A DNA stretch of 64,000 bases from a virus. The position numbers were made by a program, and so were the translations under genes. The DNA lies in the IMG/VR virus record IMGVR_UViG_3300043449_001732, positions 1 to 64,000 of that record; one strand, given 5' to 3'. Positions 56,911-60,444 of this stretch are shown here, piece by piece. Every line of letters starts with the position of its first letter. Position 1 is the first letter of the stretch. Below the pieces are notes generated by a model. That model was not told the DNA's origin. It searched no databases and worked only from the letters and a program-made list of their open reading frames with translations.

Positions 56911-57558
56911 ATGTCAACTAGTAAGGCTGCTGAATACGAAAAAGCCAAGGCGGCTGTTGCAAAAGCAGCTGCTTATAAAGCCACTGCAGCACAAAAACCC
57001 GCTGCACCTGCATCAAAACCTACTGCAGAAAAACCTTCTGCACCCACAGCAAAACCCGCTGCACCTGCAAAGAAACCTTGGGTTCATCCTGGGGTTTCAT
57101 CGGGTTACGTTCAAGATCCTAAAGTTCAGTTAAAACAATTTATGGCTAAATCAGGAGCTAAAACTCCAGATGAAGCTTATAGACTTGAAGTAGCTGCAAG
57201 ATTAAAGGACCCTGCTGCTGCACATTACTTAGCAGGTGGTGAAGGGATATATCCTGAACGCAATTCAAACACCAGGATGTATTTAGAAGAGTTAACACAA
57301 GCAGAAAGAGACAAATACGAAAAAGATAAATATAAAACCGATAGGTACGTTGTGCCTCGTGATTACTGGTATGGCATTCCAGAGAAATATCGACCTACTG
57401 ATTGGGAAACACCAGAAGGGAAAACGTGGTTTGAGCCTCAACTTAAAGAATATGCAATGACAAAAGGCAATACTATTCCATTGCCTGCCAGAGGATCTCA
57501 AGAGTTTAAGGACGCGGCAAAGAAAGTTAGATACAGTGCTGGCAGGTGGACGTGGTAG
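56911..57558 (+). CDS. hypothetical protein with N-terminal K/P/A repeats
   Basis: 215 aa; AT-rich. Confidence 0.65.
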   Translation: MSTSKAAEYEKAKAAVAKAAAYKATAAQKPAAPASKPTAEKPSAPTAKPAAPAKKPWVHPGVSSGYVQDPKVQLKQFMAKSGAKTPDEAYRLEVAARLKDPAAAHYLAGGEGIYPERNSNTRMYLEELTQAERDKYEKDKYKTDRYVVPRDYWYGIPEKYRPTDWETPEGKTWFEPQLKEYAMTKGNTIPLPARGSQEFKDAAKKVRYSAGRWTW

Positions 57559-57613
57559 TACAATTAATGCCCTTAAAGTTTTAACTTTTAACTTTTTTGT
57601 GTATAATTAAATC

Positions 57614-57890
57614 GATAGAGGTCAGGTCCCTGCCTGCACACCTGATCCATCTACCTTGCGGTAACCTTGCCGTCCCGCGTTCTTTGATCGCCCCAGGGAG
57701 AAATAGGATTTAAGTCCTGGGTTTCCAGGCCAGGGGGATGGCCTTCCCTGCCCGTTTGATTCTCGGGTGCGCCCTCGACCCAAAAAGCGTGGCCGGAAAT
57801 TCCGTCTACGCTTAGGCAAGCGCAACGAATCAGCAACACCCCCTATGCTTAGCTCCGGGACGCCGGATGATGCACAAACCTGGGGGTCAC
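57614..57890 (+). ncRNA. unidentified structured ncRNA (~270 nt)
   Basis: TATAAT at 57602; GC-rich island with about 10 helices; no credible ORF. Confidence 0.6.
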
Positions 57891-57891
57891 T

Positions 57892-57962
57892 CAACCGGTA
57901 GTCCAGTGGCAGGACACCCCGACAAGGGAGTTAGATAGCTGGTTCGATTCCAGCACGGTTGA
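57892..57962 (+). tRNA. tRNA-like RNA with defective anticodon arm
   Basis: CAACCG/CGGTTG acceptor, T8A9, GTCC/GGAC D arm, GCTGG-TTCGATT-CCAGC T arm; no 5-bp/7-nt anticodon arm; no encoded CCA. Confidence 0.65.
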
Positions 57963-57978
57963 TTTTCAGTTAAATTTA

Positions 57979-58799
57979 TTAGTTGCCTAACGCGGATATA
58001 AAGTCTTCAGGAGAATCTACGGTAGCGTACACGTATTGTTTAGGATCTATTGGTGTTTTAATTTTTTGAAGTCTGGACAAACCTTGTTTTGCAATATCTA
58101 AAGCCATTTGAGGGTCTGTCATTAAAAAATCAGCAACTGCCCCCTGGTATATTTGCGCTTCTTCTTTTAACCCAGCCGCATGTAATCCGTCAGCTACTGC
58201 GCGAGAAATGTTAGCAGCTTTTTGTCTATCTGATCTAATTGGTTCCGATAAACCAAAATCAAGTTGAATAGGTCTTCCCGTCATTTTATGAAACATAATA
58301 TTTCCAGGATGTCGATCAGACAAAGAAACATTATTTAAAGCCAATACACTCATTTGTTTAGCTTGATTTAAATACTGTTGTTTGTTCAATTGGTCGTTTA
58401 AAGAAATATCAGCAGTTCCAGCTGGCGTGTAATTAGTCCTTAGGTCTTGCATTGTTATTTCTCCACGCATTGATGGATTGATACCAGGCTCTAACGGAAC
58501 AACAGTTTGTCCAATCCTTGGAGGCGCTAAAACAACAGACTCAATTGCAGGAGCAATTCCCAACTCAGCAGCTTTAGCCTGTAAGTTAATTTCATTTAAT
58601 AGTTTTTGTTTTTTTTCTAGTGCAATTTCTTTGGTTACTAAACCAGGCGAAGTTGCATATACCTCACTAAATTGGCCACTTCCAATTTTTTTTGTGCTCT
58701 CTTAGCTGCTTCAGCAGCCATTGCACGGACTTCTTCAGGACCAACTCCTGGGCGGACAGGCGGTTTTTTATTTAAAATATTTTTTATTAAATTTAACAC
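57979..58799 (-). CDS. protein-kinase-like protein, frameshifted at A8 (58686-58693)
   Basis: IGSGQFSEVY, VTK, NE, DRHPGN, DFG; kinase frame has TAA at 58702-58704 just upstream of the Gly-rich loop. Confidence 0.75.
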
Positions 58800-58834
58800 T
58801 TTATTGCTGCACTTGTTACAATTATAAACTAACC

Positions 58835-58910
58835 CACCTGGTCCGAGACAATTGGATAGTACGGTCACTGCCGCTGCAGGACGATGTAGGTTCGAATCCT
58901 ACCCAGGTGC
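58835..58910 (+). tRNA. tRNA-like RNA with shortened anticodon loop
   Basis: CACCTGG/CCAGGTG acceptor, AATTGGATA D loop, GTAGG-TTCGAAT-CCTAC; CTGC-cgct-GCAG in the anticodon position. Confidence 0.65.
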
Positions 58911-58939
58911 TTTATATTAAGAAGACTTGAGATGCTCAG

Positions 58940-59605
58940 ATGACAACACTGGTAGCCAACGTTCCACCAGTAAAGGTATGGGTGCGTCGTGAATACTTGC
59001 GTGACTTACATGACGGCCACGGTGAATACACCCCTGGCTATTGGGTAACATGCAAATCACTCACAGGTAGGGCTTTGTATTTTGAGACGTACCTTACCGA
59101 GTATGGTGCACTGTATGACAAGCTTCCCATCAGTGCTTTTCTTGCTTGGGACCCAGATCATCCCACCAAACCACAAGCACCTACACCCGACTTACCTTTG
59201 ACAGATCTTCAATTTTGGAACGGGTTCGACCACGGGCTTACCGTAGTCGAAAAGAACTTAATCTTTAACATGCACTTTGAGGTCTTGACACGCAGCGCAG
59301 GTGTAATAGGTGGCACATATTTGTTTACTATTGACAACTACCATCCTCATCGAAACGAACCCGACTTTTATTTCTCAGAATTTCCTGATGAACATAAATC
59401 ACATAACATTGTGGCTTTGGACAATGGTCAAATTGGTGCTTATCCCAACAATCGCTGCCGGATGGTCGATCCATCTTTAACCAACCATGAATTAAAGACA
59501 CCAGACTTTAAGGTATCTACGCGTTACTTTGATGTTGAACATGCACCTAAGTGGGGAAGGCTTGGTGAATCAGACGAATACTTCTGGAAAACGCCTAACG
59601 AATAG
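58940..59605 (+). CDS. conserved phage protein (VRREYL..HGE..GA.YDKLPISAF..YPNNR)
   Basis: motifs recalled from widespread aquatic phage hypotheticals. Confidence 0.75.
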   Translation: MTTLVANVPPVKVWVRREYLRDLHDGHGEYTPGYWVTCKSLTGRALYFETYLTEYGALYDKLPISAFLAWDPDHPTKPQAPTPDLPLTDLQFWNGFDHGLTVVEKNLIFNMHFEVLTRSAGVIGGTYLFTIDNYHPHRNEPDFYFSEFPDEHKSHNIVALDNGQIGAYPNNRCRMVDPSLTNHELKTPDFKVSTRYFDVEHAPKWGRLGESDEYFWKTPNE

Positions 59606-59635: not shown

Positions 59636-59893
59636 TTGGCTTTGGTGCCAACTTCCAAGGAAATACTCCAGCGCAATAGACAAAAGTTTCTTGAGTACAA
59701 GAAGACTTTGAATTGCCAGCACTGTGGGTTGAATGATCATCGTGTCCTTGAGTTTCACCACGTTGGTGACAAGGACCATAACATATCAAATATGGTTAAT
59801 CACGGATACGGCTGGCGCCGCATCGAAGAAGAAATAAAGAAATGCATTCCGCTATGCTGCAACTGCCACAGGCTTGAGCACTGGAGTGATTAA
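59636..59893 (+). CDS. small HNH-like zinc-binding endonuclease
   Basis: C..CG..D...LEFHH...EI.KC..LC.NCHR..H. Confidence 0.8.
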   Translation: MALVPTSKEILQRNRQKFLEYKKTLNCQHCGLNDHRVLEFHHVGDKDHNISNMVNHGYGWRRIEEEIKKCIPLCCNCHRLEHWSD

Positions 59894-60444
59894 TTATTTC
59901 TAAGAGTAGCCTTAATTTGCCAAGCAGCTTTAAATGCTTGACCCGTTAAGTCGGCAAGGAAGTTTTGAATATCAATAGCTCCAACTTTAGAAGCAATAGG
60001 CTCTAGTTTTTTGGCTTTCATACCAAGTTCCTCAAGATTTTTGTAGTACACGCCAAGCATGTCAGCGCCCTTGTATGAAGTTACAGCTTGCATGGGAGGA
60101 GCAGCATCCTTAAGTCCACAACCACACATGGGCATCAGATAATCCATGCTGCGAACAAACTCAGCAAGGGTATCAAATTGCTCCAGGTGCGCCTCATACT
60201 GATCTTTTAGGAAGGCATGGACGCCTAAGAAGTTACCGCCCTCGTAGTTCAGGTGGATTAAATGTGACTGGGTCTCCAGTTCCTTGAGGTAAGCACACAG
60301 AGAGATGCACTGCTGGATGAATGCACCCACATCACCACCAGCCTTGGATTTGGCAGGGGCTTTTGGCTTGTCCTGGGGCTGAGGAACAGCTTGAACCTGG
60401 GGCGTTTCAGCAGGTTGATACTGTTGCGGAGCGGGAGCGTACAT
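59890..60444 (-). CDS. dps: Dps/ferritin-like protein
   Basis: H.N..G.NF..VH....QY......D.LAE ferroxidase pattern. Confidence 0.8.
   Translation of the reverse strand: MYAPAPQQYQPAETPQVQAVPQPQDKPKAPAKSKAGGDVGAFIQQCISLCAYLKELETQSHLIHLNYEGGNFLGVHAFLKDQYEAHLEQFDTLAEFVRSMDYLMPMCGCGLKDAAPPMQAVTSYKGADMLGVYYKNLEELGMKAKKLEPIASKVGAIDIQNFLADLTGQAFKAAWQIKATLRNN

Follow-up and report, generated by a model that had tools for sequence, protein, structure and literature searches.

Two cassettes of an RNA chain in a lake cyanophage resemble the leaders of two AbiF subfamilies and may act as antitoxin-RNA decoys ended by a tRNA-shaped signal

Pseudo-ToxI of phage PhiTE is said to be an orphan antitoxin mimic through which the phage evades ToxN, and the anti-DarTG factors are further orphan antitoxin mimics borne by phages. 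Phage T4 encodes the stable RNAs C and D in its transfer RNA (tRNA) cluster, and small RNAs linked to tRNAs are freed by ribonuclease (RNase) P or RNase Z. The RNA antitoxin of AbiF was reportedly first characterised at the bench in 2025. In AbiF systems examined experimentally, this antitoxin is the leader RNA of the toxin gene, which acts by binding and blocking the toxin. According to excerpts of a preprint, RCd22, an RNA with two abiF motifs, directly binds and neutralises AbiF in cis as well as in trans (bioRxiv 10.1101/2025.04.15.648962). Excerpts of two reviews state that AbiFr blocks the HEPN active site; AbiF is put forward there as the ancestor of Cas13 (PMC12737573, PMC13064643). 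Here we describe a non-coding locus at 57602-57963 of a 64,000-nucleotide stretch of viral DNA, hereafter the window (positions 1 to 64,000 of IMG/VR virus record IMGVR_UViG_3300043449_001732). The full virus record to which the window belongs is 83,981 bp long, has terminal repeats and is rated 100% complete. The source is an S-EIVl-like freshwater (lake) cyanophage.

The locus is a chain of independently folding, protein-free RNA cassettes, which lies between a putative promoter and a tRNA-like element. Its features are as follows.

57602-57607, plus strand: TATAAT, the -10 element of a putative promoter, preceded by a T-run and TGTG; the RNA is predicted to start near 57612-57614.
57612-57655, plus strand: M0, composed of GAUAGAGG, a covarying stem and UCCAUC; it resembles one type of host Abi_2 leader.
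57652-57711, plus strand: M1, a cassette of no assigned nature, common only to locus L030 among 14 aligned loci.
57711-57752, plus strand: Mc, composed of UAAGUCC, hairpin CCUGG/CCAGG, GGCC and hairpin CAGGG/CCCUG.
57757-57832, plus strand: Md, with a closing stem (57757-62/57827-32), an inner stem (57765-68/57778-81) and a pseudoknot (57769-72/57820-23).
57832-57893 (core 57839-57887), plus strand: the abiF-like module, with stems P1 (CCCCC/GGGGG) and P2 (UGC/GCA) and the 3' bulge CAAACC.
57891-57963, plus strand: tRNA-like 1, with acceptor, D and T arms, in which a 3-bp mini-hairpin with a GACAA loop replaces the anticodon arm.

With moderate confidence, we read this locus as orphan antitoxin-RNA mimicry against host AbiF, combined with a tRNA-shaped cutting signal. 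We postulate that the promoter drives one protein-free transcript of the cassettes from M0 to the abiF-like module. Of these, M0 and the abiF-like module would be toxin-less copies of the leaders that front two subfamilies of AbiF/Abi_2 HEPN RNases. The phage would flood the cell with leader mimics, and host AbiF would most likely stay off during infection. The anticodon-less tRNA-like element is the probable RNase P cutting signal, which would define the 3' end of the decoy.

The abiF-like module matches the architecture of the Rfam family abiF (RF03085), in which a P1 of 6 bp is separated by a gap of 1 nt from a P2 of 3 bp and the 3' internal loop CAAAYC is 6 nt long; one U-U mismatch lies at the base of P1. 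An earlier note on this DNA, made by a model from the letters alone, had drawn a helix ACCCCC/GGGGGT here, and this helix is stem P1. The terminal loop measures 23 nt, expanded by the hairpin CCGG-GACG-CCGG, compared to the 11 nt expected by Rfam (consensus CUCUCAACGAU). At gathering scores, Rfam reports nothing in the 64-kb window. At loose thresholds it reports abiF (57839-57887, E 0.082), at only 23.8 bits because of the hairpin in the terminal loop, together with a weak tRNA-Sec match on the tRNA-like element and nothing else. Among five related loci scanned, two (L024 and L050) carry abiF at 49.7 bits, above the gathering score of 37. The earlier note had called the RNA novel, and had itself held that a match to a known Rfam family would speak against this. 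By that rule the claim is partly refuted, since these relatives match abiF; the window copy lies below the RF03085 threshold.

We also compared the module with host sequences. A covariance model for which 11 host Abi_2 leaders were the only input finds a single match in the window, at 57832-57893 (42.1 bits, E 1.4e-10; E-values from this model are rough), and this is also its single match in the whole phage. The same model matches 30 of the 36 viral loci searched.

M0, at the other end of the chain, shows a corresponding relationship to a second type of host leader. Its stem is the helix GTCAGGT/ACCTGAT proposed previously, in which four pairs are changed on both sides in 17, 14, 12 and 6 of 28 sequences. 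We built a second covariance model from these 28 phage M0 copies alone. In the window it has a single match, at M0 (50.6 bits), and likewise in the whole phage. When it is run on 48 Abi_2 loci (155 kb), it yields exactly three matches (L339, L357 and L363; 52-55 bits, E ~1e-13), each of which is found on the strand of Abi_2 and upstream of it.

The host order was sampled via a small genome (G208) and comprises 401 genomes of 1.4-4.1 Mb; we infer that it corresponds to the Synechococcus/Cyanobium/Prochlorococcus group. Fifteen host leaders were read, of which 11 are abiF leaders with a hairpin in the terminal loop, two are of M0 type and two are of a third type. The 11 abiF leaders are flanked by CAACACC...GGUCAC, the same as in the window. 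The two M0-type leaders consist of GAUAGAG, a stem and CCAUC, and directly follow a TTGACA-18-CATGCT promoter. Between the two leader types, the host Abi_2 proteins share 24-29% identity, compared to 68-94% within a type. Given the matches of both covariance models and the two protein groups, the first and the last cassette of the window RNA are copies of leaders that belong to two AbiF subfamilies. At class level, strong matches to Abi_2 are found in 12 of the 20 genomes with this gene; Rfam abiF lies upstream in 3 of these 12 loci, in one of them above threshold.

Further variation is seen among the cyanobacterial loci themselves. At L363/L364 (G819:C2:63444-64074), an M0-type leader RNA is intact while the host Abi_2 gene that follows it is interrupted by two stop codons, one TGA and one TAG. 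Larger-genome cyanobacteria (L328, L329, L330, L332 and L335) carry a further variant of the Abi_2 leader, CCCGCC-AA-GGCUAUGCGAAAGUAUCC-UCAAACUGU-GCGGG, for which Rfam gives no abiF report at E up to 0.1. One cyanobacterial genome (L333 2292-2670, minus strand) has an abiF motif and an Abi_2 gene directly beside the gene for transfer-messenger RNA (tmRNA), which suggests an island inserted at ssrA; tmRNA genes are common insertion sites of islands.

The phages themselves lack the toxin gene. An Abi_2 gene was found in none of six phage records, namely the complete 83,981-bp record of the window and five related records, and among 199 sources searched with a home-made hidden Markov model of Abi_2, comprising the window and 198 viral loci, only 2 have a matching open reading frame (ORF). 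The element 3' of the abiF-like module is the tRNA-like element, not an abiF/Abi_2 gene. These counts bear on a reading that we consider very unlikely, in which the modules derive from, or regulate, an AbiF-type system borne by phages and are not directed against host immunity: the toxin would have been lost and its antitoxin retained, or the RNA would control an AbiF carried by a co-resident prophage. The location of the L333 Abi_2 locus beside a tmRNA gene would fit such an origin, and AbiF systems are often cargo of phages or prophages, for example of C. difficile phi027 (excerpts of bioRxiv 10.1101/2025.04.15.648962). The near absence of Abi_2 from the viral sources speaks against it. Furthermore, many phages conserve the modules and show compensatory changes in them, which points to selection acting on the orphan RNA itself.

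The same conservation is modular. Fourteen S-EIVl-like loci and the window have structured DNA between promoter and tRNA-like element, and an E-INS-i alignment of 14 of them shows cassettes that are present or absent in varying combinations. At three further loci (L021, L048 and L068), the promoter directly adjoins the tRNA-like element with no cassette between them. DNA contigs from other lake samples bridge modules, joining 57632 to 57866 and 57782 to 57867. The cassette presence and absence in the 14 aligned loci and the module-skipping contigs contradict the earlier proposal of one large structured RNA. It is hardly credible, then, that the region forms a single RNA of ribozyme or riboswitch type whose three-dimensional fold is fixed, a view that its GC-rich (guanine and cytosine) composition, many helices and pseudoknot would otherwise invite. 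No long-range helix closes the region, and compared with shuffled sequences the whole-region fold has no extra stability (z -0.48 on the plus strand, -1.15 on the minus strand). The long-range helix CAGGGA/TCCCTG, which the earlier note had placed around two hairpins, is not kept either: relatives without the CAGGGA segment pair the equivalent of TCCCTG locally, in hairpin 2 of Mc.

At the 3' end of the chain, tRNA-like 1 is confirmed as a tRNA-like unit with a defective anticodon, as had been claimed. ARAGORN calls no gene in the 64 kb other than a 'tRNA-???' (57891-57963), to which it assigns an 'anticodon' of two bases. The arms are supported by compensatory changes in 20, 21, 6 and 12 of 38 sequences for pairs of the acceptor stem, and in 15, 14 and 17 for pairs of the T stem. 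The element has no 5-bp anticodon stem, 7-nt loop or 3-nt anticodon; the comparison supports a 3-bp stem with GACAA in their place. This mini-hairpin shows compensatory changes in the divergent copies L245 and L306. The L306 row ends at column 77 and thereby adds gaps to the 3' pairs, and its mini-hairpin columns are aligned. As the acceptor stem and the discriminator base vary, a fixed aminoacylation identity is unlikely.

The element is shared with phages that are already named. In a search of named phages, only the tRNA-like part of the locus is matched, in Synechococcus phages S-EIVl, S-RIM8 and S-PM2. None of the three records has an annotated feature beneath the match, and ARAGORN makes the same odd tRNA call in S-RIM8 and S-PM2. 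The 17-nt core of tRNA-like 1 occurs in 79 viral contigs; in 55 of these it belongs to the same element, and in the other 24 it is a chance match in coding DNA. In cellular genomes, the 117 matches to this core are about the number expected by chance from a hand estimate, and only one of them resembled the element. The tRNA clusters of T4-like cyanophages, S-PM2 and S-RIM8 among them, also contain an anticodon-less tRNA-like element with the invariant core and GACAA (L002 1504-1577; L003 1496-1568). The one cellular match that resembles the element, a 413-nt contig of an assembly titled Clostridium sp. (L191, NZ_FBWL01000046.1), carries an S-PM2-like tRNA-like sequence; this tiny contig is probably contamination. 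A Clostridium-type order, in which 39 of 201 genomes have Abi_2, was tried as a proxy for the host and set aside, as it was centred on this probable contaminant contig and has no bearing on the host. The Abi_2 locus of the genome titled Clostridium sp. contains no abiF motif by Rfam.

The placement of abiF motifs before tRNAs is not confined to this locus. The canonical abiF loop is found in at least 120 viral contigs, and 119 occurrences were sorted. Among those listed, 60 have an ARAGORN tRNA whose start lies 12-18 nt past CAAA, and in 41 of these 60 it is tRNA-Arg(tct). The remaining listed occurrences comprise 9 with a T-loop-like motif within 140 nt, 48 classed as 'other' and 2 at contig ends. 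By eye, about 15 of these 48 are likewise followed by tRNAs or tRNA-like elements, approximately eight of them intron-split tRNAs and approximately seven with variant T loops. The abiF motifs that adjoin tRNAs fit the proposal of a tRNA mimic that sets the 3' end, with release by RNase P. M0-type modules (GAUAGAGG...UCCAUC) likewise recur between the tRNA genes of T4-like cyanophages (L002 1657-1715 and many L2xx loci), where they usually end 2-4 nt 5' of the next tRNA. The second type of AbiF-leader mimic would thus also be punctuated by tRNAs.

Freshwater T4-like cyanophage contigs (L200-L315) display, in this order, a small hairpin with GUAAGUC, the canonical abiF motif and tRNA-Arg(tct). 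By eye, several of the tRNA-Arg(tct) genes 3' of abiF seem to be intron-split in the anticodon loop (for example L216, L220, L242 and L307). A blastn search with the abiF-tRNA-Arg stretch against named phages mostly matched the tRNA, and only the match in S-SRM01 spanned the motif.

The tRNA punctuation also admits a purely local explanation, in which the cassettes are cis-acting leader or spacer structures of a tRNA-type transcript that keep the precursor stable or direct how RNase E, J or P process it, without acting in trans on host proteins. Phage abiF motifs and M0 copies do usually stand immediately 5' of tRNAs or tRNA-like elements, and of the five compact-hairpin modules three lack a host counterpart. 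We nevertheless consider this explanation distinctly unlikely, because it leaves the specific homology of two cassettes to the leaders of two Abi_2 subfamilies unexplained. Nor would free swapping of cassettes be expected of processing signals, and the three loci where the tRNA-like element follows straight from the promoter do without any cassette.

A second anticodon-less mimic lies downstream of the first, preceded by a promoter-like sequence of its own.

58793-58822, plus strand: promoter-like TTAACA-18-TACAAT with TG, located 5' of tRNA-like 2; 10 of 12 positions match.
58835-58910, plus strand: tRNA-like 2, the second anticodon-less tRNA mimic; fold z -2.52.

In five relatives (L008, L030, L031, L047 and L051), tRNA-like 2 directly follows tRNA-like 1, and DNA contigs join 57962 to 58837. 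In the window, the two mimics are separated by an ORF on the minus strand (57979-58563) with weak Pfam matches to PI3_PI4_kinase and ABC1, both below the cut-offs. The region of this kinase-like ORF (57979-58800, minus strand) is an insertion polymorphism, as DNA contigs from other samples join 57962 to 58835-58838.

Between M0 and the abiF-like module lie the three cassettes M1, Mc and Md. M1 shows no fold signal against shuffles (z 0.03). In an alignment of 21 unique copies of Mc, pairs of hairpin 1 are compensatory in 3 and 9 copies, and a pair of hairpin 2 in 4. A loose Mc pattern occurs in 35 of 151 host-order genomes; a reversed control occurs about equally often and most of the matches lack hairpin complementarity, so these were rejected as chance. 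Md is the most elaborate of the three. Its closing stem is the proposed helix TGATTC/GAATCA, in which four of six pairs are compensatory among 11 copies. The tentative pseudoknot TGCGC/GCGCA is borne out, with all four pairs 100% paired and one of them A-U in 7 and C-G in 4 of the 11 copies. The covariation score of the pseudoknot is 0.304, compared to 0.153 for shuffles; none of 500 shuffles reaches it, and slid controls stay at or below 0.105. The fold z of Md is -2.53. A search for the Md core pattern in the 401 host-order genomes gave no match. In the window alone, Md carries an inserted hairpin at approximately 57785-57813. Two of the previously drawn hairpins, AAGCGTGG/CTACGCTT and TCCGG/CCGGA, appear in minimum-free-energy folds and have no comparative support, because they are insertions that occur in the window alone or in a small number of copies.

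The cassettes with no host counterpart suggest a broader possibility, which we hold as rather unlikely: a combinatorial anti-defence cassette in which each swappable module, including Mc, Md, M1 and the two tRNA mimics with their conserved GACAA or other mini-hairpins, decoys a different RNA-binding immune effector of the host, the modules being shuffled like anti-defence genes. In such an arrangement, the tRNA mimics could be uncleavable pseudo-substrates for tRNA-cutting nucleases. If this were true, the modules with no host counterpart would point to undescribed RNA-regulated defence systems in picocyanobacteria.

Mimicry of the leaders of host AbiF, the reading we prefer, presupposes that the locus is transcribed. 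Relatives have TGTTATAAT or TGTGTATAAT at the position of TATAAT, directly past a terminator hairpin. A simple sigma-70 scan did not list TATAAT at 57602-57607 because it has no -35 match. Two metatranscriptome contigs fall on the locus. X19 (320 nt) covers 57629-57915, differs from the window at 4 of 228 letters and spans M1. X20 (323 nt) covers 57711-57773 and 57833-57880, with a different cassette between them. Both RNA runs have no cover at 57143-57628 and 57953-59300, and the DNA runs do cover the flanking ORFs; regions without RNA-run cover were not counted as evidence. The two contigs provide a weak hint of transcription.

Several observations weigh against the proposed mimicry. The RNA-run data consist of contigs, which are silent on the ends, strand and level of an RNA. 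In the DNA runs, too, the common modules are covered much more deeply than their flanks, so part of the pattern could stem simply from conservation. X19 reaches only 25 letters past the proposed cleavage site, so it is uninformative either way. The D arm and the GACAA hairpin, both strongly conserved, exceed the needs of a cutting signal. The window copy of the abiF-like module scores below the Rfam gathering score (23.8 versus 37 bits), and the same is true in the whole phage. Three of the five cassettes (M1, Mc and Md) have no host counterpart. Abi_2 is uncommon in the sampled hosts, with 17 positive genomes among 401 at order level and 20 among 401 at class level, which leaves a highly conserved phage element with a narrow target. 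Moreover, the sampled order is a presumed stand-in for the host of this phage. Decoy binding, RNase P cleavage and the phenotype are all proposed from sequence comparison.

As regards its setting, the locus at 57602-57963 is flanked by the ORF 56911-57558 (plus strand) and the convergent ORF 57979-58563 (minus strand), and contains only short mechanical ORFs. The GC content is 0.555-0.58 inside the island, compared to approximately 0.40 in the flanks. The GC excess, the lack of a long ORF and TATAAT at 57602-57607 agree with the earlier description of a GC-rich non-coding island downstream of TATAAT. That description had also failed to match the RNA to tmRNA, RNase P RNA, 6S RNA or a group I intron, and Rfam and ARAGORN agree: Rfam gives no match at E<=10 in 57450-58100 to any of these four or to GOLLD, ROOL, manA or wcaG, and ARAGORN reports no tmRNA in the window. 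Tandem Repeats Finder lists no tandem repeat within the RNA; its sole listing is the TTTTAAC run at 57579-57596, upstream. PADLOC assigns no family to three flanking ORFs. Farther downstream, the window encodes a ferritin/Dps-like ORF (59890-60444, minus strand; Pfam Ferritin, E 1.2e-9). The S-EIVl locus too has a DNA-binding ferritin-like protein, beside sulfate adenylyltransferase.

Taken as a whole, what had been seen in the letters holds for the island, the tRNA-like unit and most helices including the pseudoknot, and fails for the single fold and the long-range helix CAGGGA/TCCCTG. A comparison of homologues, as the earlier note had suggested, shows covarying pairs in M0, Mc and Md as well as in the tRNA-like element. 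Of its interpretation, a conserved, covarying non-coding RNA locus of a phage adjoining a non-decoding tRNA mimic remains; one large fold and complete novelty do not.

Within the literature covered on the abiF motif, AbiFr and AbiF, no natural toxin-less phage copies are described; the 2025 AbiF-Cas13 Cell paper and the supplements of the 2017 motif paper lie outside this scope and may bear on priority. Within the same scope, there is no report of such copies directly 5' of tRNAs. The word abiF is absent from the main text of the 2017 motif paper, and excerpts of a survey of ten thousand viral structured RNAs (PMC10690425) do not mention the element. If the decoy reading is true, the locus would represent an RNA-only form of counter-defence that is widespread in lake cyanophages. 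It would explain the conserved 'pseudo-tRNA' in the tRNA clusters of S-PM2 and S-RIM8, which is absent from the features of those records. It would also offer a search rule for further decoys, namely orphan look-alikes of leader RNAs fused to tRNA-shaped cutting signals, and its unexplained companion modules may mark unknown host systems.

Compared to known systems, the locus resembles GOLLD and ROOL in being a phage-associated structured RNA beside tRNAs, and differs in that it has no Rfam match to them and is modular instead of forming one large ornate fold (excerpts of PMC5737381). Like the T4 RNAs C and D, it would comprise small non-coding RNAs co-transcribed with tRNA-shaped units that would set their ends. 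It has no sequence relation to these RNAs, and its tRNA-shaped unit is anticodon-less with a conserved GACAA mini-hairpin. With pseudo-ToxI and the anti-DarTG factors it shares the principle of a toxin-less copy of a host antitoxin carried by a phage, here proposed to serve escape from an abortive-infection toxin. Unlike these, its proposed target is the HEPN protein AbiF rather than ToxN or DarT, and each predicted transcript would contain two different mimics; unlike ToxI arrays, the mimics are single structured hairpins and not tandem 36-nt repeats. The closest relative is the abiF motif RF03085 (AbiFr; RCd22 in C. difficile) of a type III toxin-antitoxin system, with which the phage module shares the P1 and P2 stems and the CAAAYC 3' bulge. 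Relatives of the module score above the threshold of this family, and host leaders of the same subtype precede Abi_2 genes. In the phage, the module stands without a toxin gene, bears a hairpin in its loop, has a tRNA-like element in place of terminator and gene, and is joined to other cassettes.

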